A stretch of 64,000 nucleotides of DNA from a virus: IMG/VR virus record IMGVR_UViG_3300021963_000030. The stretch is one strand, 5' to 3'. The notes below the pieces were generated by a model. The model searched no databases. It had not been told where the DNA came from and was given only the letters and a program-made list of their open reading frames with translations. Below, one piece after another: positions 17,799 through 45,196 of this stretch; position 1 is the stretch's first letter; each line of letters begins with the position of its first letter. Position numbers and translations under genes: made by a program.

Positions 17799-18581
17799 AT
17801 GATTAGTCTATCAGACCTTTTACTAGAAGCTAAGTTACCTATTAGCGAACAAGATATGGACTTGTATGCAAAAAAATACAAGAAGACCATTGATTATTTG
17901 CGTAACAAAAACAAAGTTTTATTATTGACAACCAGTAATAGATGGGTCAAACACAAAGAAGATGTTCCAAAAAGCAGTCAATTAGCTATCAAAATTCAAG
18001 ACTTGTTGGGAAAAGAAAAGGTAACATTGATCGACACAACAAAATTGAATATAGTTCCATGTGAAGGTAACGTGAGTAGTAACAAAGAGTTTGGCGGTAA
18101 TCATTGTGGAACTGCTGGCGCTTTATTAAAGAACAAAGATCAAAATCCAAGTGGATATCATCGTTGTTGGGCAAGTGTGAATGAAAAGGGAGACGAACTT
18201 TGGAAGATAAGCAAAGAATTGTTTGAAAGCGACTGTGTATTATTTTTTGCAAGCATTCGTTGGGGCCAAACAAATAGTTACTATCAAAAATTGATTGAAC
18301 GTCTAACTTGGATTGAAAACAGACACAGCACTTTGGGTGAGTCTAACATTGTTAAAGATATTGATGCTGGATTTATTGCTGTCGGTCAAAATTGGAATGG
18401 TAAACATGTAGTTGATACTCAAAAGAGCGTTCTTGAGTTTTATGGATTCAAGACACCAGATCCTTTGTTTTGGAATTGGCAATTTACAGATGATTCACTT
18501 GATGAGACTAAACGTTCATATTTAAAGGGCGTAACTACATTCGAAAATACTTTTATTAAACCATATGATAAAGCTAAGTAA
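17799..18581 (+). CDS. Flavodoxin-like (WrbA/Isf-type FMN-binding) protein with MISLSDLLLE leader
   Basis: LLLTTSNR, PCEG...C...RCWAS, ELFESDCVLFFASIRWG...KLIERL, AGFIAVG. TATTTATA at 17787-17794. Confidence 0.7.
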   Translation: MISLSDLLLEAKLPISEQDMDLYAKKYKKTIDYLRNKNKVLLLTTSNRWVKHKEDVPKSSQLAIKIQDLLGKEKVTLIDTTKLNIVPCEGNVSSNKEFGGNHCGTAGALLKNKDQNPSGYHRCWASVNEKGDELWKISKELFESDCVLFFASIRWGQTNSYYQKLIERLTWIENRHSTLGESNIVKDIDAGFIAVGQNWNGKHVVDTQKSVLEFYGFKTPDPLFWNWQFTDDSLDETKRSYLKGVTTFENTFIKPYDKAK

Positions 18582-19617
18582 TATTTTGTCGGAAGTTCTT
18601 AAAGAAGGTGGAGCCGGTGGCCACATGGAACATCCATTTGACTTTACCTCGAGCGGAAAACAACTCGTAGATGTATTTCAAAAAGCAATCAATTCACTAG
18701 AAAAAGGAACTGGTAGTGTAAAGATTGACGGTGTAAACGCAAGTATCCGTTTGGTCAATGGTGAATTCGTAATGGATCGTGGTAGTGCAAAACCATTAGA
18801 CATCAAGGGAATGCGCCCTCAAGACTTGTCTGCTAGATTTTTGCCAGATCCACAATCTGGTGCCGAACATGGATTTATCAAGATTGGTTCCAAGGTAATT
18901 CAGATATTTGATGAAGCTATACCATCTACCCGACAAGAATTAAAGACGTTGGGCTTATTAAACAATCCAAATATTTTGTTAAACGTTGAATACGTCGAAG
19001 GTCAAACAAACGTTCTTGGATACGAAAACATTGGTAACTTTCTAGCAATCCACGGTCTAAAAGAAATCAAGCCAAAGACATTTGGTAAAGATGGTAGTGT
19101 CAAGTCAAGAGTAGCTACTGAGATTCCTTATGATAAGACTGCAATGCAATCTTATATCAATAAGTTGAATATGGTTGCTAAGAAACATGGATTCAAGGTG
19201 TTAGGAAGCGTGGATACCAAGTTCAAGTCTAGACCAAACCTTTCAAAACCTTTGAGTGAGAAAGTCACTTTATATCCTCAAGGTAATCCAGTGACCAAGA
19301 GTTTAAGAGATTGGTTGAAGGATGTTACTATTCAAACTCCTTTAATCACCCGTGAACAATTCCAAAAGGCATCTGCAAGTAAAAATATTGCGATGGACTT
19401 TGAAGGACAAGATATTGATAAGATTGTCAACGATTGTATTGTGTATATTGCTACAATCAAGTTGGGTGACGAAATATTAAAGAATGCTACTAGTGAAATT
19501 GGTGACCTTGAAAAACATGAAGGAATTGTTGTTAGAGATCCAAGTATACACAGTAATCCATTTAAAATAACTGGTAGTTTCATTATTAAGGGACTACAAA
19601 GTGGTTTTGGTAAATAA
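18565..19617 (+). CDS. Ligase/covalent nucleotidyltransferase-fold protein with MIKLSNILSE leader
   Basis: SVKIDG (KxDG motif I), NVEYV (III), EGIVVR (IV), FKITG (V); N-terminal EGGAGGHMEHPFD. Confidence 0.55.
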   Translation: MIKLSNILSEVLKEGGAGGHMEHPFDFTSSGKQLVDVFQKAINSLEKGTGSVKIDGVNASIRLVNGEFVMDRGSAKPLDIKGMRPQDLSARFLPDPQSGAEHGFIKIGSKVIQIFDEAIPSTRQELKTLGLLNNPNILLNVEYVEGQTNVLGYENIGNFLAIHGLKEIKPKTFGKDGSVKSRVATEIPYDKTAMQSYINKLNMVAKKHGFKVLGSVDTKFKSRPNLSKPLSEKVTLYPQGNPVTKSLRDWLKDVTIQTPLITREQFQKASASKNIAMDFEGQDIDKIVNDCIVYIATIKLGDEILKNATSEIGDLEKHEGIVVRDPSIHSNPFKITGSFIIKGLQSGFGK

Positions 19618-19635
19618 AAAAAATAAGTATTGGTT

Positions 19636-20283
19636 ATGAAAAGAGCACAAGGTAAAAGCAATCTAGAGATTGTTCAAGATTATCTGGATGGTAATAGACC
19701 ATTTATTCAAGTTGGTTATACCGACGATATTAATAACGCCACTCGTAAAGAAGGTGAAGAGTGGGAGGATAGTCAAGGACGTAAATGGATTTGGAAGAAT
19801 GGCAGCAAACGTCGTGTTCCAAAAAAGGTTATTATTGACAACAAGTGTATCTGTAAACATTGTAATGCAGATATTCGTTGGGGTAATTACCTAGACAACC
19901 AAGTTTGGCCAAAGACACATTTGTGTTATGACTGTTTTACCAAGAATGAAACACAAATGAAGTTGGAAGGAACTTGGGAGTTTTATGATCAGATCCGTGA
20001 ACTCAAGAATGAACGATCTGTTTTGACCGATTACAAAACCAAGTTTGATGAAACATTAAAGTGGTGTATAGAGAAGGAGAACAAACCACTAGAGTTTATT
20101 AATGAAGATGGTTCTATCGAAAAGTGGGAAGGTGAGAATGGTATTGAAAAAATTAAACAAGACGTTGAAAAGGATCTTGAGTTTATAAATGCTAGGTTAT
20201 TGGAAATCGACAAGTCCATTAGTAATCTAGAAAAAGACTATGAGTCAGCAAAATCTAAGAGAAATAATAAAACAAGAGTATAA
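19636..20283 (+). CDS. Conserved hypothetical Zn-finger/coiled-coil protein immediately upstream of terL
   Basis: CKHC...CYDC, then a helical C-terminus; overlaps terL by 44 nt. ATG 19636 preferred over TTG 19630. Confidence 0.65.
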   Translation: MKRAQGKSNLEIVQDYLDGNRPFIQVGYTDDINNATRKEGEEWEDSQGRKWIWKNGSKRRVPKKVIIDNKCICKHCNADIRWGNYLDNQVWPKTHLCYDCFTKNETQMKLEGTWEFYDQIRELKNERSVLTDYKTKFDETLKWCIEKENKPLEFINEDGSIEKWEGENGIEKIKQDVEKDLEFINARLLEIDKSISNLEKDYESAKSKRNNKTRV

Positions 20284-23854: not shown

Positions 23855-23909
23855 TATAAATCCGATGATTTTCCAAATTTCAATATATTTATAATTATTA
23901 GAGAACTAT

Positions 23910-24782
23910 ATGCGCAAAAAAGCTAAACATTCTAAGTTTAAGAATAGCGGAGTATTGTTTGAGTTGCTCACGCGACAGATTACCGCAGATATATTGGCAG
24001 GTCGTGACGAATCATTCACCAAGAACTTGATGTTCAAATATTTTAACGAAAGCACTGCGCTCGGAAAAGAATTTCAATTGTATAACTTCATCGTAAGTCA
24101 ATCTTCTAAGAATTCCGAGTCTGCTGATCGTATTTTGAATGTAGTATTGCAAACACGTTCAAAGTTAAATGAACGTGAATTAACTTCGCAAAAGTATAAT
24201 CTCGTTAAGGAGATCAAAGAGAAGTTTAACATCGACGAATTTCTAAAGAACAAGATTCCAAACTATAAACTTTACGCATCGATATATAAGTTGTTTGAAA
24301 ATCAAGGTGGTGATGAAGTTAAGTTTGATGTAGAAGAGATTTTGGAAGCCAGAGAGTTTGTAACAGAAAATTTGACAAAGGAAAGAAAGAACGAAGAACA
24401 AGCTTTGGATGTATATAGTTCTCAACCAGCCGAAGTGAAGTTACTCGCATATAAGTTCTTGATCGAAAACTTCAACAAAAAGTATTCGTCTTTGTTGCCT
24501 TCTCAAAAGGCTTTGTTAAAAGAATATATTACAAACGTTTCCAACACCAACAAGTTCACTGAATTTGTCAACAAGGAATATAAGAAGGTGTCTGATCTTC
24601 TTAAGGAAAGATCTATTTTGGTTAAGCATGATGTTATCAAGATCAAACTTAACGAAACGATTGCTCAGCTTTCAAACAAAACTCTCACAGGTATTGTGAA
24701 AGAGAATCAATTGACTGCTCTTTTGAGTGCGTATGAATTGATCGAAGAATTAAATAAACTTGCTGATGAAAAAGCTTCTTAA
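23910..24782 (+). CDS. Conserved hypothetical head-region protein
   Basis: 290-aa helical ORF between portal and protease; TATTTATA at 23886-23893. Confidence 0.7.
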   Translation: MRKKAKHSKFKNSGVLFELLTRQITADILAGRDESFTKNLMFKYFNESTALGKEFQLYNFIVSQSSKNSESADRILNVVLQTRSKLNERELTSQKYNLVKEIKEKFNIDEFLKNKIPNYKLYASIYKLFENQGGDEVKFDVEEILEAREFVTENLTKERKNEEQALDVYSSQPAEVKLLAYKFLIENFNKKYSSLLPSQKALLKEYITNVSNTNKFTEFVNKEYKKVSDLLKERSILVKHDVIKIKLNETIAQLSNKTLTGIVKENQLTALLSAYELIEELNKLADEKAS

Positions 24783-25878
24783 AGAATCAGGCGATCCGTT
24801 TAGAGATATTGTTAAAAAATATGCTCAATTGTATCGTGATAGTGAATTAGCCCGCATTGATAAATCTCAATACAATGCATGGTTGCAAGCTCATGCTGGC
24901 AAGATCTCGCCATCTGTAAAAGCAGACATCGAAAAAAAAGTAAATGCCAAGTTGAAAAAGAAAGATGAAGCATCAACCAGTAGTGCTGCTGGTGCTTACA
25001 TGACTCCATTTGCTTTTTCTCGTAGAGGACCAGGCAATGTTAGAGCAGCTACTCAACTTGGATTTAAGTTAGCAAAACCCGTAAAAAAGAGTCCAGGCTA
25101 TGCTTTGGAAAACCAAATGTATAGTGAACCAGCTTATGTAACTCCAGCACAAAACATCGAACCAGTATCAACTTACACAGATCAATTTGGATTGGTTCAA
25201 CACGGTGATCCAGAGTTGGACCCAGGCCTTGCTGGTAAGACACAAACAACTCTTCCTACTACAGAACAACGTAAATCTGTCAAAAAAATCATCGAAGGAT
25301 ATCGTGCCAACAGATTTTTGACAAAGGAAGCAGACGGCGGTCAACAACCAGCACCGGCACAACCTCAACAAGCACCACAGGCAGATCCAACTGTAAATGT
25401 TCAATCATATGACATTCAACCAGACTTTACTGCTTTTGATACCAAGTTAAAGGATGCTACTGAACAGACCAAATTAGAACTTCAAAAGAAGATTCAAGAT
25501 CAAATTTTAAACAAAAAGATCGTTGTTCGTGCTAGTAAAGGATATAAGCAACCAGAAACAGATTATACAATCAACGTGACTGGTGTTCAAATTGATTACT
25601 ATTATGATCGATATGTTATCATCATAATTGGTCGTGAAGAAAGTAAACAAAAAGCAGCCAAGTTCTTTGTAAAACCTGGTTTCAAGATCAAGATTTTGGG
25701 TCCAGCCGATGTTAAACAAAGAGACAAGTATCAAATTGCCAAATCAAAAGCATTGGTTGATCCATCACAACAAACTTCAGCTGGAGCTTCAAATGTTGTA
25801 ACTTCAAAACAACAACCAGCACCAGCTAAACCAGAGGAAACACCAGAAGCTCCAGCAGCACAACCACCACCAGCTTAA
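24766..25878 (+). CDS. Putative internal head protein (MKKLLKE leader, multiple xxE sites)
   Basis: ATG 24766 overlaps the upstream stop. EASTSSAAGAYMTPFAF segment and Q/P-rich linkers. Confidence 0.6.
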   Translation: MKKLLKESGDPFRDIVKKYAQLYRDSELARIDKSQYNAWLQAHAGKISPSVKADIEKKVNAKLKKKDEASTSSAAGAYMTPFAFSRRGPGNVRAATQLGFKLAKPVKKSPGYALENQMYSEPAYVTPAQNIEPVSTYTDQFGLVQHGDPELDPGLAGKTQTTLPTTEQRKSVKKIIEGYRANRFLTKEADGGQQPAPAQPQQAPQADPTVNVQSYDIQPDFTAFDTKLKDATEQTKLELQKKIQDQILNKKIVVRASKGYKQPETDYTINVTGVQIDYYYDRYVIIIIGREESKQKAAKFFVKPGFKIKILGPADVKQRDKYQIAKSKALVDPSQQTSAGASNVVTSKQQPAPAKPEETPEAPAAQPPPA

Positions 25879-25879
25879 T

Positions 25880-26488
25880 ATGAAAACAGTATTAATTGAC
25901 GTATTACCATTTGAGTTCAAGAAGACCGCACTTAACGAATCGTTGAGTGATGGTAAACTTCTTGTAACTGGCACACTACAACGTGCTGAAGCTAAGAATC
26001 AAAATGGTAGAATCTATCCAAAGGAAATTCTTCAACGTGAAGCCACAAAATACATGGATAATTTTGTTAAACAACGTCGTGCTATGGGTGAATTGGATCA
26101 TCCAGAATCGTCTGTTGTTAACTTAAAAAATGTTAGTCACAACATCGTAGACATGGGTTGGGATGGTGATGATTTGGTTGGAACTGTAGAAATTTTACCA
26201 ACACCAAGTGGTAACATTTTGAAAGATCTTCTCAAGGCTGGTATTCTTTTGGGTATCAGTAGTCGTGGTTTGGGTAGTGTAAAGAAGGATATGAGAGAAG
26301 GTGCTGATGTGGTTCAAGATGATTTTGACTTGATCGCATTTGACTTTGTAAGCAATCCTTCAACACAAGGTGCGTTCATGTATCCTCAAGGAAAGATCAC
26401 CGAAAGTGTCAATCCTAATGGCAACAGAATCATCAATCCTTACTCAAATATTGAAAAAATTATTCATGATATTATATCAGAATTATAA
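25880..26488 (+). CDS. Prohead core protease (gp21-like)
   Basis: NQNGRIYP, GELDHP (His), GISSRGLGS (Ser), FDFVSNPS. Confidence 0.95.
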   Translation: MKTVLIDVLPFEFKKTALNESLSDGKLLVTGTLQRAEAKNQNGRIYPKEILQREATKYMDNFVKQRRAMGELDHPESSVVNLKNVSHNIVDMGWDGDDLVGTVEILPTPSGNILKDLLKAGILLGISSRGLGSVKKDMREGADVVQDDFDLIAFDFVSNPSTQGAFMYPQGKITESVNPNGNRIINPYSNIEKIIHDIISEL

Positions 26489-26509
26489 TTTGAACCCTAT
26501 TTATAGCAT

Positions 26510-27961: not shown

Positions 27962-27966
27962 ACAAC

Positions 27967-28110: not shown

Positions 28111-29202
28111 ATGAGCGATCTATTAAAGGAAAGCATCGCAGACGCAAAGGCAGTTCGTGAAACTGCAATTGCTAATGCAAAAACCTTTCTTGAGGAAAAC
28201 TTCGCAAAGAGCATGAAAGAAATGTTCGCAGAGAAGCTCAAGGAAGAGTCAGAAGAAGCAGGTGAGGAAAAGAAGGAAGAAGGAAAGATCGAAGAGAAGC
28301 TTTCTTCTTCAGGCATTGGTAAGGACGATGGTAACTTCGTATCAGACCAAAAGCCAGTCCAACCTTCTACATCTGCCAAGAAGAACACAACTCCAGCCGG
28401 TAAGCAAGAGTTCGACGCAACTCTTGAAGAAGGCGAAGAAATCACCAGCGAAGAGTTGGATGAGATTCTTGCTGAGTTGGAACAAGAAGGTAAGAAGGAA
28501 GACGGTGAAAAGGAAGAAAAGCACGAAGTAGTTGCTGAAGAGGAAGAGGCTTCTGAAGAAGAAGTTGTTGATCTTGATGAACTACTCGCTGAGTTGGAAG
28601 TTGACGAACAAGCTCCAGCTGCTCCAGTTGCTCCAGCACCAGCTGCTGTTGACCCAACCATGGCAGCCGCAGCACCAGCTGTTCCAGCCGCACCAGTTGC
28701 TCCAGCACCTGGACAAGTTCCTTCCCCAATGGAAGAAGACACCTACGAAGAAGAAGTGACTGCTGAAGAAATGGCAGAGGCACTCGTTGCTATTAATGAA
28801 GAAAACGAAGCATTGAAGAATTCTTTGAAGGAACACCAAGATACTGTTAAGTATTTGAAGGGTGTTCTTGAAGAAACCAATCTCTTGAATGCTAAGTTGC
28901 TCTATACCAACAAGATCTTCAAGGGTAAGAATTTGACCGAAGACCAAAAGTTGAAGGTCATCAACACATTTGATCTCACCAAGACATTGCGTGAAATCAA
29001 GTTGGCATATACAGTTTTGGCCGAATCATTTAATGCCGGTGGATCAGTCGCCAAGAAAAAGACAAATGCGACTGTCTCAACTATCACCGAAGGTTTGGCA
29101 AGCAAACCAGTATCCAGCACAAAGCCTGACTCTACGATTGTAGAACCTCAAGCTGATGTAATGGCTTCAAGATTCCAAAAGCTCGCAGGAATCAAGAAGT
29201 AA
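28111..29202 (+). CDS. Prohead core scaffold protein (gp22-like)
   Basis: MSDLLKESIADAKAV, very acidic, AP-rich linker, NLLNAKLLY, RFQKLAGI; directly upstream of the major capsid gene. Confidence 0.85.
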   Translation: MSDLLKESIADAKAVRETAIANAKTFLEENFAKSMKEMFAEKLKEESEEAGEEKKEEGKIEEKLSSSGIGKDDGNFVSDQKPVQPSTSAKKNTTPAGKQEFDATLEEGEEITSEELDEILAELEQEGKKEDGEKEEKHEVVAEEEEASEEEVVDLDELLAELEVDEQAPAAPVAPAPAAVDPTMAAAAPAVPAAPVAPAPGQVPSPMEEDTYEEEVTAEEMAEALVAINEENEALKNSLKEHQDTVKYLKGVLEETNLLNAKLLYTNKIFKGKNLTEDQKLKVINTFDLTKTLREIKLAYTVLAESFNAGGSVAKKKTNATVSTITEGLASKPVSSTKPDSTIVEPQADVMASRFQKLAGIKK

Positions 29203-29245: not shown

Positions 29246-30976
29246 ATGGACGTAAAGAGTCTACTAACAAATAATATGAATCCACAGGCAAAGCTTATGG
29301 CTGAAACCCGTGGTCTTCAAAGCAAGTGGGAAAAGACGGGTCTTCTAGAAAACACCACAGGTGTTGAGAAGGCACACATGTCAATCCTCTTGGAAAACCA
29401 AGCAAAGCAATTGTTGGACGAAGCTTCAACAACCGGCACAAGCGCAAACAGTGAACAATGGGCAGGCGTTGCTCTTCCATTGGTCCGTCGTGTATTTGCT
29501 GAGATCGCTGCTAAGGAATTCGTATCGGTTCAACCAATGAATCTCCCAAGCGGTCTTATCTTCTACTTAGACTTCAAGTATGGTTCCGGCACTCAATTGG
29601 GTCACACTGCAGGCGAAAGCTTGTTCGGTGGTAACCAAAAGAAGCTCGGTTCGACTGATGCTCCTGTGAACGGTCTCTATGGCCAAGGACGTTACGCTTA
29701 TTCTGAGCGCACCGTTTCTAGCTCAAACGCAACTGTTCTCGTAGCTACTGCAAGCTGGAACGATCTCCAATTCGATTCTGCTTTCAGTGCTTCCGTAAAC
29801 GGTTCTGGTAACGTTCCAGGTATCTACAAGATCACCTTTAACCTCGACGACAACACTGAAGCAAAGCCAGGTTCCGGTAACCTCTGGAACGTTGACTTGA
29901 ATGCAGTTCGTTCGTTCGGTGTTCAAAGTTCCGCAGGTGTAGCTCGCACTGTATTGAACACTTACGCAACCGCAGTTAACACTGGTAGCTTGGCAAACCC
30001 ATACTATCAAATTAACTTGTTCGTAAGTCAATCTGCTGGTGCTGCTGCTCCAACTACTACCCAACGTTTGAACTACACTGTTCAACCTTCGGACAACCTC
30101 CGTGGTGACTTCGAAGATGGTAAGACCGCTGGTGAAGGTTCTGGTGTTGCTAACAACGTCTATACCCAATCTATCGGAACTGACATCAAGATCCCAGAAG
30201 TCAACCTTGAGTTGAAGAGCGAACCAATCGTTGCTAAGACTCGTAAGTTGAAGGCAGTCTGGACCCCAGAACTCGCTCAAGACTTGAACGCATACCACTC
30301 TATTGATGCAGAAGCAGAACTTACTGCTCTCTTGAGTGAATATGTTTCGATGGAAATCGACCTCGAAATCCTCGACATGTTGAACGAGTCTGTAACTGGT
30401 CAAACCACTGAAGCTTGGTCCGCCCAAATCGGAACTGAATTCAGCAAGACCATCAATAACACTACCGATGTGGCTTCGTTCACACGTAATGTTAATGCTT
30501 CACCAAACAGAACCGCTTACGTAAAGAGCACTTGGTTCCAAACTCTTGGTAACAAGATCCAAAAGGTCTCTAACAAGATTCACCAATTGACTCTCCGTGG
30601 TGGTGCTAACTTCTTGGTCTGCTCCCCAGACGTTGCAACAATCTTGGAGTCTATCCCAGGTTACGTTGTAAACACTGATGGTGACCAAGCTAAGTTCGCA
30701 ATGGGTGTAAGCCGTGTTGGTAGCTTCGCAAGTCGCTTCCAAGTGTATAAGAACCCATACATGACCGATAACGCTATCCTCGTTGGTTTCCGTGGTAGCA
30801 ACTTCTTGGAGACTGGTGCTGTGTATGCCCCATACATCCCACTCATCCAAACTCCATTGGTCTATGATCCAACCAACTTCACTCCACGTAGAGGTGTAAT
30901 GACCCGCTACGCTAAGAAGGTTGTTCGTCCTGAGTTCTACGGTAAGGTCTTGATCGCTGATCTCGACACCGTATAA
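29246..30976 (+). CDS. Major capsid protein (gp23-like)
   Basis: LPLVRRV, VQPMNLPSGLIFYL, AKTRKLKAVWTPELAQDLNAYHSIDAEAEL, YAPYIPL, GVMTRY. Confidence 0.97.
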   Translation: MDVKSLLTNNMNPQAKLMAETRGLQSKWEKTGLLENTTGVEKAHMSILLENQAKQLLDEASTTGTSANSEQWAGVALPLVRRVFAEIAAKEFVSVQPMNLPSGLIFYLDFKYGSGTQLGHTAGESLFGGNQKKLGSTDAPVNGLYGQGRYAYSERTVSSSNATVLVATASWNDLQFDSAFSASVNGSGNVPGIYKITFNLDDNTEAKPGSGNLWNVDLNAVRSFGVQSSAGVARTVLNTYATAVNTGSLANPYYQINLFVSQSAGAAAPTTTQRLNYTVQPSDNLRGDFEDGKTAGEGSGVANNVYTQSIGTDIKIPEVNLELKSEPIVAKTRKLKAVWTPELAQDLNAYHSIDAEAELTALLSEYVSMEIDLEILDMLNESVTGQTTEAWSAQIGTEFSKTINNTTDVASFTRNVNASPNRTAYVKSTWFQTLGNKIQKVSNKIHQLTLRGGANFLVCSPDVATILESIPGYVVNTDGDQAKFAMGVSRVGSFASRFQVYKNPYMTDNAILVGFRGSNFLETGAVYAPYIPLIQTPLVYDPTNFTPRRGVMTRYAKKVVRPEFYGKVLIADLDTV

Positions 30977-33578: not shown

Positions 33579-33590
33579 TATTTATATCAT

Positions 33591-36498: not shown

Positions 36499-37493
36499 TC
36501 AAGTTGATGGATTTATTGAAAGAAGGTGGTAAACTATTTGGTAGTAGAGCCAGTAGAGTTACTACTTCTGAGATGAACAGTATTTTTGATGAACTCAAGA
36601 ATCAACTGGGTAATGACTTTAGCAAGTTTGAGTTGAGTAAAGCACTACCATCCAAACAAGATCACGGTGATATTGATATTGTGTTGACTGGATCGTCTGG
36701 TGATATCAAGAACACGTTGTTATCTAATTTGGGTAATAAGGTGAAGGATTATAGTCGTAACGGAAATATCTATAGTGTTCTTTACAAGTCTGATTTGGGT
36801 AAGGATGTTCACGTAGACTTTTTGTATGCGGATACCGACGATGACTTTGACGCACAAAAGACTTATTTAGCTCTAGGAGACTTTAGTGGTATATTGGGTG
36901 TAATGGCCAGACAAAATGGTTACAAGTATGCTACTACAGGCTTTCAAAAGATTTATGTAGACAAGAGTGGTAGACATCACGATATACTAATAACCAAGAA
37001 TCTAAAAGACGGTTTGAAGATATTGGGTTACGGTGATGTATTAAACACATATGACAATATTCAGAACAATGATGATGTTGTGAAGTTTATTAGTAGCAGT
37101 CCATTGTTTGACAGTGACAACTATAAAGGTCAAACTATGAATCATAGTGATCGTAAGAGAGTCAGATCTGGTAGACCTAGCGCTGATTATATCCGTAAGT
37201 CATTAATAGGTTTAAATAAACATAGAACCATAGATGATCCAGATTATTTCTTGAAGAAGTTGTTTCCAGACAAGTATCAAGCTTATTTGGATAAGATCAA
37301 AGAAATAGAATCGTTTACCCCAGTCAAATCCAAATATGGTGGTGAATGGATTATGCAAAATTTTAATGTCAAACCTGGGCCAGTATTGGGTAAAATCAAA
37401 CAATTCTGGACACAAAAGTATGGCGATCAATTAGATAATGTCCCAGAAGATCAATTACGTAGCGACACTGATATGTATATTAAGTCTATATAA
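36495..37493 (+). CDS. Pol-beta superfamily nucleotidyltransferase-like protein with MIKLMDLLKE leader
   Basis: KQDHGDIDIVL and VHVDF; C-terminal GGEWIM...VKPGPVLGKI resembles CCA/poly(A) polymerase tails. Confidence 0.6.
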   Translation: MIKLMDLLKEGGKLFGSRASRVTTSEMNSIFDELKNQLGNDFSKFELSKALPSKQDHGDIDIVLTGSSGDIKNTLLSNLGNKVKDYSRNGNIYSVLYKSDLGKDVHVDFLYADTDDDFDAQKTYLALGDFSGILGVMARQNGYKYATTGFQKIYVDKSGRHHDILITKNLKDGLKILGYGDVLNTYDNIQNNDDVVKFISSSPLFDSDNYKGQTMNHSDRKRVRSGRPSADYIRKSLIGLNKHRTIDDPDYFLKKLFPDKYQAYLDKIKEIESFTPVKSKYGGEWIMQNFNVKPGPVLGKIKQFWTQKYGDQLDNVPEDQLRSDTDMYIKSI

Positions 37494-37556
37494 GGACAAA
37501 CTTTGCTTTTATATTAAATGACGGTATGTATGATTTTTAAATATTTATATTAAACT

Positions 37557-40500
37557 ATGCCGAATAATATTATCATAACGCCTGGAAATAGAGAAATTAG
37601 TTTTCAAGATGGGTCTAACCCCGCAAGAAAATTAACAATTACAGGAAGTAATCTTTCATATGAATCAACAATAAGTGCGAGTAATTTTTATACACACAAT
37701 AGTAGTGGGAGATTTTATGGAAGTGCATCATATGCTGCGACCGCGAGTTATGCCGCTATATATTATAGCGGTAGTGTTGTTAGTTCTTCATATGCGGTGA
37801 CTGCTTCTTATGCACTAAATGGTGGTGGCGGCGGAACAAACTTAGTTACGGGATCAACATATCCAATAACAAGTAGCTACAGTATAAATGCAATTAGTGC
37901 TTCATACATTCCTACAAGTGCAAATATTACCGCAAGTTTAGCAGAAGACAGTATTTCTTCTTCTTATGCAGAGACGGCAAAAAGTGCAAGTTATGCTTTA
38001 ACTGCTTCGTATGCTTTGAACGGTGGAGGTGGCGGCCACAATGTAGTATTGGTCACAGGCAGTATAGCGACTCAGACAATCTTATATGATGTTGTTACTG
38101 GACAAGAGAACGTGATTTCGTCCGTTGGTGGCGCCATTGATTTATCACTAAATAAATGGAGTGTTTCTGTTCTAGAAGAGTGGGATGATGTGAGTGGTGA
38201 TCCATATTATGCAAGTTGTAGTTTATTGTTACATTGTAATGGAACCGACAATTCTATTTCATTTTCAGACAGCGGACCTAATAGTTTAACGGTTACATCA
38301 AACGGAGGCGCCAAAATAGTATCGGCTATTAACAAATTTGGTAGCGGAAGCGGATTCTTTGATGGAGTCAACGATTATCTCAGCGTTCCAAATAGTGTTG
38401 GTTTTAATTTTGGAACAGGAGATTTTACTATTGAATGTTGGATTCGTTCTTCAGATGTATCTGCTGCGAGACAACGAGGATTTTTTCAAACGTCAACTTC
38501 CCCTATAGGGTTAGCTACATATTTCAACACAGGTATAGCAATAATTCAAGGTGCTAATGCTTCTGGAGGACCGCTAAATGGTGGATTGTGTGCAAACGTT
38601 GCGGGGGTCAATGTGGGAAGCAACGCTGCATCAATAACAGCAAATACTTGGCATCATATTGCGCTTGTAAGACTGTCTGGAACTTCATCGTTGTATGTAG
38701 ATGGAACATCTATTGCATCTGTAATAACTCCGGGAAATTGTTCAGGAACATATGCGGCAGTTGGTGGATATTATAATACTTCATTTTTACATAGTGGTTA
38801 CATAGATGAACTTAGAATTCTGAAGGGGGTTGCTAGATACACAGGTAGTTTCACGCCACCAACAACTGAATTTGAAAATATCGCATATACTCAATATACA
38901 ACAAACTATATAGCCACTGTCGGAGGACTAAATGATACTGGCTCTGACTATGGTGTTCAAAAAATAAATAATAGTTCTCTTAAGATTAGAAAGATGTCGA
39001 ACACCAGTCAGCCTGTATCTGGGTCTCAAGCACTTAGTAACACTGTTGATAGAGTTTATGTTAATGTATTGGATTACACAAATGTAACATCAGCATCGAA
39101 TTCTACAAGCGCATCATATGCTCTAACCTCTTCATATGCTGGTTTGTCGCAAACTGCATCATATGTTAATTTAGCTCGTAGTGCTTCGTATGTTAGTCTT
39201 GCAAAAAGTGCTTCGTATGTTAATCTAGCTCGTAGTGCAAGTTATTATAGTGGAAATGTGGCAACCGCTTCTTACTCACCTTCTTCTGGTAATTCTATAA
39301 GTGCAAGTTATGCTTTAACTGCTTCGTATGCTTTGAACGGTGGTGGCGGCGGACACAATGTAGTATTGGTCACAGGCAGTATAGCAACCCAAACAATCTT
39401 ATATGATGTTGTTACTGGGCAAGAGAACACAATCACGGGTATCGATTTATCATTAAATAAGTGGAGTGTTTCTGTTCTGGAAGAGTGGGAATATACCACC
39501 GGCGACCCGTATTATGCAAGTTGTAGTTTATTACTACACTGTAACGGCACTAATAATTCGACAACATTCTCAGATAGCGGACCATATAACTTGACTGTTA
39601 CTTCGGTTGGTGGCGCAAAAATAGCATCAGCTATTAACAAATTCGGCAGTGGAAGCGGATTCTTTGATGGAGTCAACGATTATCTTTCTATTCCAGATCA
39701 TCCTGGTTTTAATTTTGGTTCTGGTGATTTTACAGTGGAATGTTGGCTTTATCCAACTGCCCATCCCGCAGTTGTTTATTTATTCGGTCAAACAAATGCT
39801 TCAGACGTTGCTCCTTTTGTTATTGCGCTTTCTAATGGTAGACCAAGTATAGCAGCATCAACAAATGGTTCAACATGGATTGTAAACGCAACGCTTGCAA
39901 CACCGTTAACACTTAATGCTTGGACACATTTAGCAGCAGTTAGATATGGTAATAAATGGAGTGTATATGTAAATGGTGTTGAAAACGTTGTAGCACCATC
40001 AACATCTGGAACTCTTTATGATTCTGTAAATGGGCTCGGAATAGGCGCTGACGGTCCAGGCGCCGGAGTTGTATCATATTATTATAAAGGATATATTGAT
40101 GAATTCAGAGTGTTGAAGGGGGTTGCTAGATATACAGGTAGTTTTACACCACCAACATCGGAATTTGATAATATCGCATATACTCAAACCTTAACAAACT
40201 ATGTAGCCACTGTAGGTGGTTTAAATGATACTGGGTCAGATTATGGTGTTCAAAAAATAAACAACAGTTCTCTTAAAATTAGAAAAATGTCTGACACCAG
40301 TCAACCTGTGTCAGGTTCTCAACCACTTAGTTCTACTGTTGATAGAGTTTATGTTAATGTGTTAGATTATACAAATGTAACGTCGGCATCAAACTCTACA
40401 AGTGCTTCTTATGCTTTGACTGCATCATACGCATCTAATGCTGGCTCTTTTTTGACAACCGGTTCGACATATCCAATAACTGCAAGTTGGAGTAATAATA

Positions 40501-42248
40501 GTGTAACATCTTCATATGTTATTACATCACAAACCGCAAGTTATTATGGCGGCAATGTAATCAGTTCCAGTTACAGTTTAAGTAGTTCGTATGCACCAAC
40601 AAATACAAATATCACTGCAAGTTGGTCGAGTAATGCAATATCATCTAGTTATGCTTTAACTGCTTCATATGTGTCGGGTGGTGGAGGCGGTCACAATGTA
40701 GTATTGGTCACAGGCAGTATAGCGACTCAGACAATACTGTATGATGTTGTTACTGGTCAAGAAAATATTATAACAGGTATTGATTTATCATTAAATAAGT
40801 GGAGTGTTTCTGTTCTGGAAGAGTGGGAATATACAACTGGTGATCCATATTATGCAAGTTGTAGTTTACTATTGCATTGCAATGGCACCAATAACTCAAC
40901 TACATTCTCAGATAGTGGGCCAAATAATTTAACCGTTACTTCGGTTGGGGGAACAAAAATAGCATCAGCTATTTATAAGTTTGGTAGTGGAAGTGCTTTT
41001 TTTGATGGAGTTAATGATTATATTTCCGTTCAAGACAACGCTGGTCTTAATTTTGGATCTGGTGATTTTACAATCGAATACTGGGAATATAGAACTTCGA
41101 CAGCAACTCAAAGTCCAATATTAAGTAGAAATACTGCAGTATATACCCCATATATGGTTGGATGGCGTGATTCTGCGGTAGGCCCTAATCTTGCATTGTA
41201 TATGAGTTCTACTGGAACTAATTGGAATGTCGCTTCAAATGTAAGTATGGGAAGTGTTGTATTTAATGCTTGGACTCATTATGCTGTTACACGACAAGGT
41301 AATACATTTAGAACTTTTCAAAACGGCACACTAATTTCTACATTTACATCGGCAGCTTCATTTCCAGCTGTATCTGGTCCGTTGCAGATAGGTAGATATG
41401 ATACCGTGTATTATTTTAAAGGTGGATATCTCGATGAACTTAGAATTCTAAAAGGTGTTGCTAGATATACAGGTAGTTTCACGCCTCCAACAGCAGAATT
41501 TGAGAATATCGCATACACGCAAAATTTGACAAACTACATGGCCACAGTCGGAGGACTAAATGATACTGGGTCAGATTATGGTGTTCAAAAAATAAACAAC
41601 AGTTCTCTTAAGATTAGAAAGATGTCGAACACCAGTCAGCCTGTGTCAGGTTCTCAACCACTTAGTAACACTGTTGATAGAGTTTATGTTAATGTATTGG
41701 ATTACACAAATGTAACATCCGCTTCTAATTCTACAAGTGCTTCTTATGCTTTGACATCAAGTTATTATGGCGGATCTGTTGAGACTGCTAGTTTTGCTTC
41801 TAACTCTGTTAGTAGTTCTTATGCTCTGACCTCTTCATATACACCGATTTATTTACTTGAAGCCTATGCTAGTGAGACTTATACTTTACCAGGTAGTTTT
41901 ACCGAAGATCCTTGTAGATACAGTTATATAAGCAATACAGTCAATGTATCAAGCAGTTGGTTCAACACAAGCACATATACATTCACACCACAAAAAGCAG
42001 GCTACTGGGAAATCACTGCCACTTATGATGTTTATAGAAATGCTGAGGCAAGTATGGTAATTAAGAAAAATACCAACATTGTAGCTTCAGCAGGATCTTT
42101 TAATTCGGTAGCTCAACAAATAACAAAAATTGTCTATCTGAATGGTTCAACTGATTATATAAAAATTTTCAATTATGGCGGAGCAGCACTTTCAAGATCA
42201 CAATATGACGCAAGGTCTTGGTTCCAAGCAAGATGGGTAGGCGAATAA
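37557..42248 (+). CDS. Tail fibre/receptor-binding protein with three LamG (ConA-like) modules
   Basis: SASYA repeats; 3x SLLLHCNG...KFGSGS.FFDG..DY...GDFT.E.W...W.H.A...GYIDE.RI.KGVARY; C-terminal beta-sandwich (YTFTPQKAGYWEI). TATTTATA at 37542-37549. Confidence 0.85.
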   Translation: MPNNIIITPGNREISFQDGSNPARKLTITGSNLSYESTISASNFYTHNSSGRFYGSASYAATASYAAIYYSGSVVSSSYAVTASYALNGGGGGTNLVTGSTYPITSSYSINAISASYIPTSANITASLAEDSISSSYAETAKSASYALTASYALNGGGGGHNVVLVTGSIATQTILYDVVTGQENVISSVGGAIDLSLNKWSVSVLEEWDDVSGDPYYASCSLLLHCNGTDNSISFSDSGPNSLTVTSNGGAKIVSAINKFGSGSGFFDGVNDYLSVPNSVGFNFGTGDFTIECWIRSSDVSAARQRGFFQTSTSPIGLATYFNTGIAIIQGANASGGPLNGGLCANVAGVNVGSNAASITANTWHHIALVRLSGTSSLYVDGTSIASVITPGNCSGTYAAVGGYYNTSFLHSGYIDELRILKGVARYTGSFTPPTTEFENIAYTQYTTNYIATVGGLNDTGSDYGVQKINNSSLKIRKMSNTSQPVSGSQALSNTVDRVYVNVLDYTNVTSASNSTSASYALTSSYAGLSQTASYVNLARSASYVSLAKSASYVNLARSASYYSGNVATASYSPSSGNSISASYALTASYALNGGGGGHNVVLVTGSIATQTILYDVVTGQENTITGIDLSLNKWSVSVLEEWEYTTGDPYYASCSLLLHCNGTNNSTTFSDSGPYNLTVTSVGGAKIASAINKFGSGSGFFDGVNDYLSIPDHPGFNFGSGDFTVECWLYPTAHPAVVYLFGQTNASDVAPFVIALSNGRPSIAASTNGSTWIVNATLATPLTLNAWTHLAAVRYGNKWSVYVNGVENVVAPSTSGTLYDSVNGLGIGADGPGAGVVSYYYKGYIDEFRVLKGVARYTGSFTPPTSEFDNIAYTQTLTNYVATVGGLNDTGSDYGVQKINNSSLKIRKMSDTSQPVSGSQPLSSTVDRVYVNVLDYTNVTSASNSTSASYALTASYASNAGSFLTTGSTYPITASWSNNSVTSSYVITSQTASYYGGNVISSSYSLSSSYAPTNTNITASWSSNAISSSYALTASYVSGGGGGHNVVLVTGSIATQTILYDVVTGQENIITGIDLSLNKWSVSVLEEWEYTTGDPYYASCSLLLHCNGTNNSTTFSDSGPNNLTVTSVGGTKIASAIYKFGSGSAFFDGVNDYISVQDNAGLNFGSGDFTIEYWEYRTSTATQSPILSRNTAVYTPYMVGWRDSAVGPNLALYMSSTGTNWNVASNVSMGSVVFNAWTHYAVTRQGNTFRTFQNGTLISTFTSAASFPAVSGPLQIGRYDTVYYFKGGYLDELRILKGVARYTGSFTPPTAEFENIAYTQNLTNYMATVGGLNDTGSDYGVQKINNSSLKIRKMSNTSQPVSGSQPLSNTVDRVYVNVLDYTNVTSASNSTSASYALTSSYYGGSVETASFASNSVSSSYALTSSYTPIYLLEAYASETYTLPGSFTEDPCRYSYISNTVNVSSSWFNTSTYTFTPQKAGYWEITATYDVYRNAEASMVIKKNTNIVASAGSFNSVAQQITKIVYLNGSTDYIKIFNYGGAALSRSQYDARSWFQARWVGE
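37984..39130 (+). repeat. Fibre module copy 1
   Basis: Flanks nearly identical at DNA level to copies 2 and 3; boundaries approximate. Confidence 0.85.
39301..40430 (+). repeat. Fibre module copy 2
   Basis: Offset 1317 nt from copy 1; boundaries approximate. Confidence 0.85.
40647..41760 (+). repeat. Fibre module copy 3
   Basis: Offset 1341 nt from copy 2; boundaries approximate. Confidence 0.85.
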
Positions 42249-42274: not shown

Positions 42275-43444
42275 ATGATACGATTCAAAGACATCATTTC
42301 TGAACTTAGACGCAATCCAGAGTTAAATCCCAAAATTGCCGCATTGGATGCGTTGAGTAAGTATAAGGATGATCCTTCTTATTTTATCACGTTCACCACC
42401 ATTGAAAAAGTTGGGCTAAACCCAAGAAGTCCATTTTCTACACCTGTTGGTTTGTATGCGTATAAACTCAAGGATGTGTATGGTGAATTAGAGAGTAAGA
42501 ATTATTTGTTTGGTGTAGACCGTCCATTTGTCAACGTCATACAATTGACCACAGATCGTGTATTAGATTTGGAAAATTACAACAACAAAAGTTCTGACTT
42601 ACAAAAACTACGAAAGATCTATGAGAGTGAAACTGGTAAGTCATTTGATGATGTGTTGAAAGAGTTTGACAGTAATAATCATTTGTTGTATCCAGTTGAT
42701 ACTGATGGTAAGTATGTGTATGGTTTGATGAATTTTATATCAAACGGAGTTGAGGGTAGAACTGGACCAGTAAAGAAGTCAATGGTCTATTTCAACAAGT
42801 TGCTTAGAAAAATGGGTTATGATGTGGTAATTGATCGAACTGGAACGGTTCATTTATTACAACCATCTCAGGCTGTTTTCTTGGTTCCCTCGTCGTATAA
42901 ATTTGTCGAGAAGATTATCAATAAGTCTTATTCTGGAAACGAGCCTGTATCAGCAAACACTTACTGGCACGTTGGTGTTAACCCCACAGTTGACAATGTT
43001 ATCTTAAAACGTGAAGGAGATACTTACAAAGTATTATTGATCAAACGTAAGAACAAAGTGGAATTCGGTAAGTGGGCATTGCCTGGCGGGTTTATTGATA
43101 CAAATGCTAAAAAAGGTGAGCCTTGGCAGCCTGGTAGAGAAACTCCAAGACAAGCTGCTATCAGAGAGTTGCACGAAGAAACTGGATTATACATTGAGTC
43201 TATTTCAAATTTGTTGAAACAGATTGGTGTGTATGAAGGTAATCATCGTGACCCAAGAGATACAAAAACTTCATGGTCAAAGTCTCATGCATTTGGTCTT
43301 GTATTGCCAGATGGGTTTAATACAAGTTCCGTAAAAGCAAGAGATGATGCTTCCGATGCACAGTGGTTTGATATAAAAGCACTTCCTACACTAGCATTTG
43401 ACCATTCCACAATTATTGGAGACGCACTACCTAAATTGATATAG
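42275..43444 (+). CDS. Unknown N-terminal domain + NrtR/NadM-type Nudix hydrolase, with MIRFKDIISE leader
   Basis: VLLIKR...WALPGGF...ETPRQAAIRELHEETGL, RDPR, LAFDH. Start re-assigned to ATG 42275. Confidence 0.8.
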   Translation: MIRFKDIISELRRNPELNPKIAALDALSKYKDDPSYFITFTTIEKVGLNPRSPFSTPVGLYAYKLKDVYGELESKNYLFGVDRPFVNVIQLTTDRVLDLENYNNKSSDLQKLRKIYESETGKSFDDVLKEFDSNNHLLYPVDTDGKYVYGLMNFISNGVEGRTGPVKKSMVYFNKLLRKMGYDVVIDRTGTVHLLQPSQAVFLVPSSYKFVEKIINKSYSGNEPVSANTYWHVGVNPTVDNVILKREGDTYKVLLIKRKNKVEFGKWALPGGFIDTNAKKGEPWQPGRETPRQAAIRELHEETGLYIESISNLLKQIGVYEGNHRDPRDTKTSWSKSHAFGLVLPDGFNTSSVKARDDASDAQWFDIKALPTLAFDHSTIIGDALPKLI

Positions 43445-43456
43445 TATTTATAACAT

Positions 43457-44392
43457 ATGGCAACTACTCCTACACCCACTGATATAGCTAATGCTCAGAC
43501 TAATTTGAACAACATGATTACGTTCAATACTCAGTTTTACTCTTATGGTAATTCTAAGATATTGAATGCTTATGCCTTATTACAACAAACAGACAATTCA
43601 GATCTAGGTCTACAAATTGGTCTAGATTTACTTACAAGTGCAATGGCTGCTTTGGGTGGTTGTGCTGGATTTGGAGGAGCATTAGCTGGTAACTTTGTTG
43701 CTGCTATGGTGGCTCAATATGCTACGGTAACACCACCATGTTTGGCTGGAGAATTTGCTGATCTTATTAGTAGATTTGAACAAACGTCATTACAATGTGG
43801 TAGTGACCTACAAGAACTATATGCTAATACTTCTGGATCGTGGAACAATACTTATAGTGGTCAATTGATTACTCCATTTGGAACAACAACTATATCGGGA
43901 TCAGTATCAGACTTAGCTACTCCAAATTTGTTTCCAAGTCAAGATGATCCACTGTTTAATGACTTGCTTGAAACTGCTACATATGCTTTGGATCAATCTA
44001 TTTGGTCAGTATTGTTACCAAGATTTTGTATTACATCATACCAACCTTCTACTGAGTATCCATCTTCTCAGTATACAGAACAAGATATGGAGAATAATGC
44101 TACAGCATTCTATTCAGCACATCCAGCTTATTACAATACTTGGGTATATGAATCCGCTAATAAATCTAAGAATGATGCTTATTGGTTGACTCAAAGTAAT
44201 TTAGGAACTGGTTATTCAATGACAAGTGATGGTAGTTTGAATAGTCAAGCTTGTGATTATTTATTTATCGATGCTTATGATGGTGTGATTATAAATCCAG
44301 CTGGGTTATTTAATAGAGAGTTTGTGTTTACCAGTATGAATATTCCTCAAAAGACTCATACATTTCCATCACCAACTCCACCTCCACCATGA
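43457..44392 (+). CDS. Hypothetical late protein with a hydrophobic Gly/Ala-rich segment and PT-like termini
   Basis: 311 aa; TATTTATA at 43445-43452. Confidence 0.65.
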   Translation: MATTPTPTDIANAQTNLNNMITFNTQFYSYGNSKILNAYALLQQTDNSDLGLQIGLDLLTSAMAALGGCAGFGGALAGNFVAAMVAQYATVTPPCLAGEFADLISRFEQTSLQCGSDLQELYANTSGSWNNTYSGQLITPFGTTTISGSVSDLATPNLFPSQDDPLFNDLLETATYALDQSIWSVLLPRFCITSYQPSTEYPSSQYTEQDMENNATAFYSAHPAYYNTWVYESANKSKNDAYWLTQSNLGTGYSMTSDGSLNSQACDYLFIDAYDGVIINPAGLFNREFVFTSMNIPQKTHTFPSPTPPPP

Positions 44393-44395
44393 TTT

Positions 44396-45196
44396 ATGAA
44401 CTTACTTGAATTACTAAAAAAACACAGATTGATAGAAGGTGTAGATGATCCGTCTACACTCAAATGTATATTCATGGCTGGTGGGCCTGGTAGTGGCAAA
44501 AGCACCGTGGCAAGAGAATTGTTCGATTTACCAGATGATTCGTCTGTTAACCAGTATGGTTTGAAGGTTATCAATAGTGACAATGAGTTTGAACAGATGC
44601 TTCATCAAATGAAGATTTCTACAGACTTGAGTAAGTTGAGTCCTGAGGAGTTTGAACGATTGACGGTTGGTCCACAATCTACTAGAGAAAAAGCAAAGAG
44701 AATAACCAGAAAGAAATTGGACATGTATAGAAGGGCCAAGTTGGGTCTCATCATAGATGGAACTGGTGATAGTATACAATCTATTCAGTTGAAGAAACGT
44801 GTTATGGAACAACACGGATATGATTGTTATATGGTATTTGTTAATACTAGTTTGCAAGTTGCAATGGAACGAAATGCGAAAAGAGATCGTAAGATACCTG
44901 AGGATTTATTGACACAGATGTGGTTTAGTTGTCAAAACAATTTGGGTCATTTTCAAAATATCTTTGGAAACAATTTTAAGATTGTTGATCGAACAAAGAG
45001 TGGAGAACCAATTGATAAAAGTGTGTTAAGGAGTGTAATTAATTTCTTGAAAAGTCCAATCAGAAACCCAATTGGTAGACGTTGGATTCAAAACTATTAT
45101 ACTGATGTCAAGAGGGTTGATGGTGCTACTCGGTCTGATGACGATTCTGATATTGAGCCACCTTCTATTGAACCGATGCGTCCTAGAAGAGTATGA
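44396..45196 (+). CDS. P-loop kinase (zeta-toxin/AAA_33-like)
   Basis: IFMAGGPGSGKST, INSD, LIIDGTG, FVNTSLQVAMERN..R.R. Confidence 0.8.
   Translation: MNLLELLKKHRLIEGVDDPSTLKCIFMAGGPGSGKSTVARELFDLPDDSSVNQYGLKVINSDNEFEQMLHQMKISTDLSKLSPEEFERLTVGPQSTREKAKRITRKKLDMYRRAKLGLIIDGTGDSIQSIQLKKRVMEQHGYDCYMVFVNTSLQVAMERNAKRDRKIPEDLLTQMWFSCQNNLGHFQNIFGNNFKIVDRTKSGEPIDKSVLRSVINFLKSPIRNPIGRRWIQNYYTDVKRVDGATRSDDDSDIEPPSIEPMRPRRV

Follow-up and report, generated by a model that had tools for sequence, protein, structure and literature searches.

The window analyzed here, a stretch of 64,000 nucleotides from an uncultured virus (IMG/VR record IMGVR_UViG_3300021963_000030), encodes 8 to 11 otherwise unrelated proteins that begin with a common leader of 9–14 residues, counted from Met1. 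This leader, which reads as a short amphipathic peptide of the form M-I-K-[L/F]-x-[D/N]-[I/L]-L-x-E, in some cases lengthened by another [ILV]-[IL]-x-E, is in our judgment likely to be a clade-specific capsid-targeting propeptide of the T4 type, a reading that draws on sequence comparison, structure models, and the analogy with phage T4. Genes are referred to by the position of their first nucleotide, and a slash within a peptide marks the predicted cut (table 1).

A Leader Shared by Unrelated Proteins

The strict pattern M-[IV]-[KRS]-[LF]-x-[DNH]-[IL]-[LIV]-x(0-1)-E matched eight N-termini (17799, 18565, 26510, 33591, 34198, 35995, 36495, and 42275), against about 9e-5 matches expected among the 59 genes from the amino-acid composition of the window, and the same pattern deprived of its Met found no internal match in 20,251 window residues. 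The endings of these leaders are LLLE, ILSE (or VLKE), HLVE, DLLE, ILVE, ILKE, LLKE, and IISE. Three further genes, 24766, 35465, and 44396, carry weaker leaders, for which the support from relatives varies: that of 24766 is short and kept in most orthologs, its Glu not being invariant (LKKS in contig L072), and that of 35465 is conserved in orthologs. In the 44396 family, the domain start GVDDPGILK nearly always follows a hydrophobic-x-E, with leaders of 4 to ~45 residues, and some members bear a strong form (MVKLIDLLNE, MLKLKDILLE); on these two sequence features, we count the leader of 44396 as real. The start sites are backed by in-frame stops upstream in orthologs, which in the case of 34198 lie just upstream of the start.

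An earlier sequence-only reading of this DNA had proposed a tag common to about 11 unrelated proteins and had quoted 12 N-termini, all of which are present in the window where it had placed them; the count now stands at eight strict and three weaker leaders. The mature parts are indeed mutually unrelated, with a best pairwise E value of 0.059 in an all-against-all BLASTP comparison and with differing Pfam families and folds. All leaders lie within 17.8–45.2 kb, around the head genes, and the sheath, tube, baseplate, fiber, primase, Mre11/Rad50, and glycosyltransferase genes of the window are without one, as had been proposed for the tail, baseplate, fiber, and replication proteins. A profile scan had also been suggested; within the 64-kb window, it returned no strict-pattern match outside the eight genes, and relatives retain the motif. 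The mature parts of the tagged proteins are mostly basic, 9 of the 11 having an isoelectric point (pI) above 8 as compared with 9 of 34 other proteins (Mann–Whitney p = 0.01), which fits proteins lying among packaged DNA; the internal proteins (IPs) of T4 touch packaged DNA via lysines (PMC3012670).

The motif persists in orthologs from about 80 related viral contigs, among them 38 orthologs of 26510, 34 of 18565, and 30 of 17799, in which positions 5 and 9 vary. The same two positions stood out when entropy was calculated over 11 independent tagged families (2.4–2.5 bits, against 0–1.3 bits at positions 1–4, 6–8, and 10), and positions 4 (L/F), 7 (I/L), 8 (L/I), and 10 (E) did not exceed 0.95 bits each. 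The motif of the 18565 leader is kept across 120 database clusters, M1, I2, and E10 of 42275 are at least 90% conserved in 18 homologs, and orthologs of 33591 follow MIK[LF]xDL[ILMF][ED]. The leader of 36495, MIKLMDLLKE/GG in the window, reads MIKLGNILTGLIKE/GG in a relative of 303 kb and MIKLTDILQQSVIKLTE/GG in another; orthologous leaders of 14 and 17 residues still finish in [LI]xE/GG, the length shifting and both ends staying fixed. A degenerate DNA pattern for the leader, which misses Ser or CGN-encoded Arg at position 3 as well as the nine-residue form, found only the ligase ortholog in five long relatives.

The Head Module and Its Protease

The capsid protein of the window shares ~52% identity with its counterparts in Microcystis phage Mel-JY01 and in the group of Flavobacterium phage immuto, and 37% with that of Rhodothermus phage RM378. 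A megablast search with the region gave zero matches among isolate phages, and relatives in IMG/VR are numerous, with proteases 83–99% identical to that of the window, the contigs at 99% having come from lakes; one of them is a contig of jumbo size (G001; 303,564 bp; protease 90% identical). On the grounds of this capsid and protease relatedness, the lack of an isolate DNA match, and the many IMG/VR relatives, we assign the window to a distant T4-like myophage that is uncultured and whose clade is abundant in the environment. Almost every gene lies on the plus strand.

The gp21-like protease that the sequence-only reading had placed at 25880 is borne out by its Pfam score (table 1) and by the alignment of its His74 and Ser127 with His85 and Ser140 of T4 gp21, which we take to be the catalytic residues of that enzyme. 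When the capsid proteins are aligned, FLTE/A, where T4 gp23 is cut, lines up with QLLDE/A in the window, QLISE/A in Mel-JY01, and QIVSE/A in immuto, which predicts a maturation cut of the window capsid protein after Glu59 (QLLDE/AS; codon 29420–29422). Since both the catalytic residues and the gp23 cut site align, the cleavage specificity of this S77 protease is probably retained. The rule for gp21 is cleavage after L/I-x-E (PMC9026906), which is broader than the I-A-E quoted for the T4 internal proteins in the earlier reading.

Matches to this rule are densest in the scaffold, 26510, and 23910, in that order for the first two, and a density of this kind suggests core proteins that are chopped up during maturation. 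It is on this account that 26510, with 8 [LI]xE against 3.2 expected, is probably a degraded core or scaffold-type protein, more likely so than cargo. The 23910 protein, which is conserved in Mel-JY01 and immuto, is a candidate for a core protein of the prohead, placed as gp67/gp68 are in T4. The N-terminal MSDLLKE of the scaffold, its likeness to the leader aside, is probably part of the conserved helix of the scaffold itself, since Glu7 is replaced by Asn or Gln in Mel-JY01 and immuto.

These observations bear on an alternative in which the leader does target the prohead and the proteins that carry it are parts of the assembly stage, such as core or scaffold accessories and in-head enzymes, to be degraded, expelled, or retained rather than injected. 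The match of 26510 and 23910 with the high [LI]xE density of the scaffold suggests such degradation for these two. Most tagged proteins, however, are folded enzymes with no internal [LI]xE excess and with basic mature parts, and in T4 both Alt and fusions to the capsid-targeting sequence (CTS), which have such leaders, are delivered to the host (PMC9026906). Taken together, we regard an exclusively assembly-stage role as improbable.

The Leader as a Separable Piece

In the AlphaFold2 (AF2) model of 18565, which has a mean predicted local distance difference test (pLDDT) value of 92.4, residues 1–13 fall below 50, and the same holds for residues 1–20 of 42275 beside well-modeled domains; the leader is, in these models, unpacked and outside the folds. 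A complex prediction that paired the protease with residues 1–40 of 36495, run without controls, scored 0.00, which speaks neither for nor against an interaction.

An exhaustive profile-free search with 18565 gathered 364 clusters at 50% identity (E <= 0.001), from which 142 ligase-family representatives (among proteins P0121–P0270) were anchored on the conserved domain start GGxGH..HPFD. In 27 of them, the protein begins M-GG, with the Met at the position of the Glu, and these tagless members indicate that the fold does not need the hydrophobic-x-E piece. In 63 others a short leader is present, which places hydrophobic-x-E right before the GG in 60 cases, and in the remaining 52 the domain follows other domains, again with hydrophobic-x-E before GG in 45. 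With either hydrophobic-x-E/GG or M-GG at the domain start, all these forms could give a free N-terminal Gly-Gly. Similarly, the homolog of 36495 in Pseudomonas phage pPa_SNUABM_DT01 starts MGGNALAPFG, aligned from query residue 11 to /GGKLFGSRA, with its Met at E10. The leader also appears modular by comparison with immuto, whose NT5C (5'-nucleotidase) has a leader of 16–17 residues ending in LLLE: immuto thereby adds a leader to an enzyme whose window homolog, 51957, has none.

The internal joints of this family could also be understood in another way, namely that hydrophobic-hydrophobic-x-E-G is a structural or functional part of certain domain families (ligase-like, kinase, nucleotidyltransferase) and that the N-termini form a common helix or a docking peptide for a partner outside the prohead, for example a modifying enzyme. 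The joint is internal in the 45 of 52 ligase-family fusions, and kinase-family members with long N-terminal extensions have it there too, as this explanation would have it. It is countered by the M-GG members and the AF2 models described above, by the presence of the same leader on at least eight unrelated folds, and by the exact coincidence of the motif's end with the protease rule, an ending which the capsid protein shares at the T4-equivalent cut site; we consider it quite improbable. One particular partner, a radical-SAM/SPASM enzyme recognizing the leader, was rejected: the 64-kb window has no such enzyme, CxxxCxxC being absent from every window protein and the Pfam scans of the window giving no such family.

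Among the domains joined in the ligase-family fusions is a cytidylyltransferase-like (NMNAT-like) module, which dozens of metagenomic proteins (P0127, P0128, P0146, and others) carry in fusion, ahead of the ligase-like domain. The window encodes such a module in an untagged 263-residue protein (53746–54537) that starts MNNKVTVLLPGGFKPPHAGH.

Conservation of the Peptide and the Upstream Motif

The leader copies differ by synonymous codons at nearly every position, and the DNA upstream is not common to them; what is conserved is the peptide, not the DNA. Upstream of several genes, we found the motif TATTTATA, the reverse complement of T4's late TATAAATA, which has 25 copies in the window against 5.2 expected (a count that none of 100 shuffles attained). 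Of these, 20 are on the plus strand, mostly 4–15 nt before the start of a structural or tagged gene, and they precede the sheath gene, 23910, 46356 (an untagged gene with no family match), and the tube-like 53179, in addition to the tagged 17799, 26510, and 33591. The remaining tagged genes follow within units headed by TATTTATA. The motif is a candidate late promoter, and its short distance to several starts suggests that the resulting mRNAs may be nearly leaderless; from this arrangement, we infer coexpression of the tagged genes with the structural genes.

Such mRNAs, together with the MIK- that also begins the untagged genes 300 and 45587, might suggest that the likeness is a feature of nucleic acid or translation (a start optimum for leaderless or Shine–Dalgarno-less mRNAs) or a recombination scar of shuffled cassettes, but this explanation is very improbable, being largely refuted by the codon comparison. 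Conservation tracks amino-acid classes with positions 5 and 9 free, 18565, 34198, 35995, 36495, and 42275 are without TATTTATA directly upstream, and most TATTTATA genes are untagged.

Relation to T4 and Other Phages

Loading of the CTS type is established for the IPs of T-even phages and for Alt (PMC3012670, PMC9026906, PMC12373910). Incorporation into the head requires no more than the first 10 residues of IPIII, residues 4 and 7 of the CTS serving mainly for targeting and residues 8 and 10 for processing, and the CTS may be a general route by which T4-like phages load varied proteins (PMC9026906). The leaders read from the T4 record are MKTYQEFIAE (IPII/III), MAKINELLRE (gp24), MELITELFDE (Alt), and MLKEQLIAE (gp22), and Alt, with 682 residues, is annotated there as packaged and entering the host with the DNA.

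The window leaders resemble the T4 CTS and the propeptides of gp24 and Alt in their location at the extreme N-terminus of otherwise unrelated proteins, in their length of ~10 residues, and in the hydrophobic positions 4 and 7 followed by [IL]-x-E at positions 8–10. The two phages are also alike in having a homologous S77 protease, a homologous capsid cut site, and a scaffold N-terminus that resembles the leader. They differ in the consensus (MIK[LF]xD[IL]LxE in the window, MKTYQEFIAE in T4) and in length, as the window leader may be 9, 10, 11, 14, or 17 residues long and bear a second [IL]xE, unlike the CTS. The cargo is also different: whereas T4 has three small IPs and one enzyme (Alt), the window has 8–11 tagged proteins in 27 kb, mostly enzymes of 17–48 kDa. 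Finally, loading is established for T4 and a prediction for the window.

The leader is too short for homology statistics against MKTYQEFIAE; in other T4-like phages, intermediates (MITFKQYLLNE, MKTFKEFFTE, MKSFKDFQNVNE) occur on proteins of the same enzyme family or on their neighbors. In a Logan contig of a T4-like phage (L105, 5574–16762), the ligase-family member starts MITFKQYLLNE/GG, and its neighbors start MRSFKEFLLTE, MKTFKEFFTE, MKTFKEFVDS (a cytidylyltransferase-like protein), and MNTFKEYYDS. These near-canonical leaders, which sit on ParB_N-like, cytidylyltransferase-like, RimB-like, and ligase-like proteins, nearly match MKTFKEF of T4 IPI. In pelagiphage HTVC008M, the kinase homolog starts MIPFILKE/GLYDPG, with MKSFKDFQNVNE nearby, and in immuto about nine genes upstream of the terminase have leaders such as MKKSQLRQIIKE and MRLLELLRE. 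On account of these near-canonical forms, MIKLxDLLxE seems to be one dialect among those of a widespread signal of the T4 type.

The giant phages phiKZ, 201phi2-1, and SPN3US likewise have head-internal proteins that are cut after Glu by a diverged gp21 homolog, at sites that can be redundant (PMC9026906). Their proteases recognize S/A-x-E and remove long, diverse propeptides, in contrast to the one short leader common to the window proteins, and the capsid and protease genes of the window are far closer to the T4 type than to those of giant phages.

Predicted Functions of the Tagged Proteins

The tagged protein 18565 is by motifs and modeled structure a nucleotidyltransferase of the ligase superfamily with an RNA-ligase fold. 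Its K53-x-D55-G56 (motif I, KxDG), E319-G320 (motif IV), and K334 (motif V) are invariant in 41 homologs, and its best structural neighbors are T4 Rnl1 (the top match; Z 8.8, root-mean-square deviation 4.0, 184 aligned residues), Naegleria Rnl (Z 7.6), and Trl1 (Z 7.0–7.3). The Z values in this VIA structure search are middling, and the top 25 rows are all ligases or capping enzymes. A tblastn search with 18565 among isolate phages gave zero matches, and a PDB sequence search at E <= 1 returned no match for 18565, 36495, or 17799.

Pfam assigns 35465 to the 2H phosphoesterases (LigT/Acb1-like), with PF13563 at 5.6e-11 (43.1 bits, cut-off 27) and PF02834 at 25.4 bits (cut-off 23.3); matches to Acb1 (PF23474; 24.5 bits, under the cut-off of 27) and TIGR02258 are weaker. 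The 44396 protein is, from its matches to PF13671 (4.2e-15) and PF06414 (8.7e-10), a P-loop kinase of the AAA_33 or zeta-toxin-like kind. The 42275 protein, whose N-domain has no family assignment, ends in what both profile and model identify as a Nudix domain of the ADP-ribose type (PF00293, 2.8e-16): its structure matches NrtR (Z 19.4) and NadM (Z 18.1), Nudix-domain matches filled the results of the structural search, and NCBIfam agrees with the ADP-ribose type. The ligase-fold, 2H phosphoesterase, Nudix, and kinase domains named in the sequence-only reading are thus confirmed, by motifs and structure for the ligase and by Pfam for the others. Its nucleotidyltransferase and flavoprotein persist as leads. 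The 36495 protein is probably a PolX-like nucleotidyltransferase, as indicated by phrog_24943 (1.8e-9) and by its single isolate-phage match, the pPa_SNUABM_DT01 homolog, which is annotated NT_POLXc and adjoins a CCA-adding enzyme in that phage; 17799 is possibly FMN-reductase-like, some of its Atlas neighbors carrying PF03358 (FMN_red). The PGDYG domain named for 35995 did not hold at the Pfam threshold (PF14083, 1.6e-4, 22.4 bits, cut-off 27). Profile searches gave no family match for 24766, and searches of Pfam, PHROG, NCBIfam, and Atlas gave no family or Atlas lead for 34198; the analysis assigned no function to these two, nor to 26510 and 33591.

Between them, the tagged ligase, kinase, and 2H phosphodiesterase cover the set of RNA-repair activities found in Trl1, the fungal and plant tRNA ligase. 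T4 Pnk and Rnl1 likewise provide kinase and ligase, and Trl1 also the 2H cyclic phosphodiesterase, the window having all three. Unlike in Trl1, the activities of the window, which are assigned here from fold and family, are on separate genes with capsid-type leaders.

Table 1. Positions of the tagged genes, head and tail genes, and upstream motifs in the window
Feature	Position	Strand	Leader and its position	Details
Primase and glycosyltransferases	left part of window			Pfam
Tail sheath	13740			Pfam
Tagged gene, 260 aa	17799..18581	+	MISLSDLLLE/AK, 17799-17828	mature pI 8.8
Tagged gene, 350 aa	18565..19617	+	MIKLSNILSEVLKE/GG, 18565-18606	
Large terminase, T4-type	20240			Pfam
Portal	21878			Pfam
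Untagged 290-aa protein between portal and protease	23910..24782	+		12 [LI]xE, 5.9 expected
Weakly tagged gene, 370 aa	24766..25878	+	MKKLLKE/SG, 24766-24786	mature pI 9.5
Prohead protease, gp21/S77 family	25880..26488	+		PF03420, 9.6e-31, 107.2 bits (cut-off 27)
Tagged gene, 171 aa	26510..27025	+	MIKLRHLVE/NS, 26510-26536	pI 5.6; second-highest [LI]xE density, just behind scaffold
Scaffold, gp22-like	28111..29202	+		N-terminus MSDLLKES; 17 [LI]xE, 7.3 expected; top density in window
Major capsid protein, gp23 family	29246..30976	+		PF07068, 2.6e-75
Tagged gene, 200 aa	33591..34193	+	MIKFNDLLE/NE, 33591-33617	phrog_7595; mature pI 9.5
Tagged gene, 434 aa	34198..35502	+	MVKLIDILVE/NP, 34198-34227	
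Weakly tagged gene, 177 aa	35465..35998	+	MKLLENMLLNE/NR, 35465-35497	GTG start
Tagged gene, 167 aa	35995..36498	+	MIKFKDILKE/VA, 35995-36024	acidic, pI 5.3
Tagged gene, 332 aa	36495..37493	+	MIKLMDLLKE/GG, 36495-36524	
Tagged gene, 389 aa	42275..43444	+	MIRFKDIISE/LR, 42275-42304	
Tagged gene, 266 aa	44396..45196	+	MNLLELLKKHRLIE/GV, 44396-44437	
Tube-like protein	53179			weak Pfam match
T4 baseplate protein	54583			Pfam
TATTTATA sites, examples, set 1	287-294, 5843-5850, 13679-13686, 17787-17794, 23886-23893, 26498-26505			
TATTTATA sites, examples, set 2	32641-32648, 33579-33586, 37542-37549, 43445-43452, 46344-46351, 58281-58288			

Other Genes of the Region

Several neighboring genes deserve mention in their own right. 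Directly after the capsid gene, a TauD-family dioxygenase (31040–31819, plus strand; 7.7e-18) overlaps a convergent Mom-family protein (31809–32618, minus strand; 1.5e-42), a pair that hints at the insertion of a module for modifying DNA bases into the head operon. The Mom-like gene is separated from the tagged block by a gene (32652–33578) that is preceded by TATTTATA and encodes a 308-residue protein with a lipoprotein-type N-terminus (MRKLFTLFLASFLLVGGC). The gap from 26510 to the scaffold is filled by two overlapping candidate open reading frames (ORFs) of 125 and 225 residues without family match (27028–28054), the only minus-strand ORFs inside the head module. A protein of 1563 residues with three Laminin_G_3 stretches (37557–42248; 3.5e-47), probably a fiber or decoration protein, lies between two sets of tagged genes and comes first in the unit containing 42275. 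To the left, one ORF of 1063 residues (10437–13628) with Metallophos and SMC_N matches may be a fused Mre11–Rad50 of the T4 gp47–gp46 type.

Proposed Mechanism and Its Weighing

If the leader acts as a capsid-targeting propeptide, it would bring late-made proteins into the core of the assembling prohead, where the S77 protease would remove it after the Glu, leaving the predicted neo-N-termini GGAGGHMEHPFDF, AKLPISEQDMDLYAK, GGKLFGSR, and NPDTVYYK, besides ASTTGTSA on the capsid protein. This enzyme would also cut the capsid protein after Glu59 and degrade the scaffold and the proteins of the core. The mature proteins, mostly basic and of 17–48 kDa, would remain inside the DNA-filled head and would most likely exit with the DNA at infection, by analogy with IPI–III and Alt of T4. 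That the proteins are directed to the head, cleaved, ejected, and active early in the host is inferred throughout from sequence and from this analogy. As to the claim of a capsid-targeting and cleavage signal in the earlier reading, the protease, the capsid cut site, the T4-like positions, the unpacked leader, the tagless homologs, and the modularity lend it good indirect support, and cleavage in virions stays a prediction from these features.

Four observations weigh on the other side. First, hydrophobic-x-E-G also occurs at internal joints of long ligase- and kinase-family fusions that have no N-terminal leader, and there it could belong to the structure of the domains instead of marking a cut. 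Second, the Glu is swapped for Asp, Gln, or Lys in some orthologs (Asp in some of those of 33591). Third, the cargo reaches 48 kDa and is larger than the T4 IPs, although T4 Alt is packaged despite its size. Fourth, the tagged set appears dispensable and variable between close relatives, since G001, which was scanned as protein for leaders, has them only on its ligase, 26510, and nucleotidyltransferase orthologs; the location of these three within ~20 kb of its head genes, by contrast, favors the capsid reading. The internal joints may be read either as a structural element or as joints of a polyprotein; in the latter case, the protease may also cut multi-enzyme polyproteins at hydrophobic-x-E/G, by which each enzyme gains a free N-terminal glycine, and tagless relatives would reach the same N-terminus via loss of Met from M-GG.

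That the tagged proteins constitute an injected enzyme toolkit, as the T4 analogy suggests, is possible, its probability being at best about even and perhaps clearly below that. As a hypothesis from their sequences, the tagged ligase, kinase, and 2H phosphoesterase would serve as an injected RNA-repair kit. A more specific proposal, which we put forward tentatively and hold to be rather doubtful, is that the capsid carries a ready-made kit ejected with the DNA, combining Trl1-like healing and sealing of RNA ends and the PolX-like enzyme with an ADP-ribose, NAD, and redox branch (Nudix and FMN-reductase-like), and that this kit could undo tRNA-cutting, NAD-depleting, or cyclic-nucleotide-signaling defenses before phage gene expression. 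A limited literature search found no report of enzyme-rich CTS cargo in distant T4-like phages, although such reports may exist.

The families concerned are abundant in metagenomes, with 7,524 of 8,000 scored candidates matching the kinase family at E <= 1e-10, and most members of the ligase-like and kinase families bear some hydrophobic-x-E leader or joint. If the leader works as in T4, a motif of ten residues would provide a sequence-only handle on the head-carried, probably injected proteins of uncultured T4-like phages. The list obtained here consists mostly of enzymes rather than small inhibitors and, if true, widens the repertoire of pre-made phage effectors, which would then cover RNA repair, hydrolysis of nucleotide signals or ADP-ribose, and redox functions. 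In phages of non-model hosts, the leader might likewise be put to use as a tag to package proteins for delivery, in the way that the T4 CTS has been used in E. coli.

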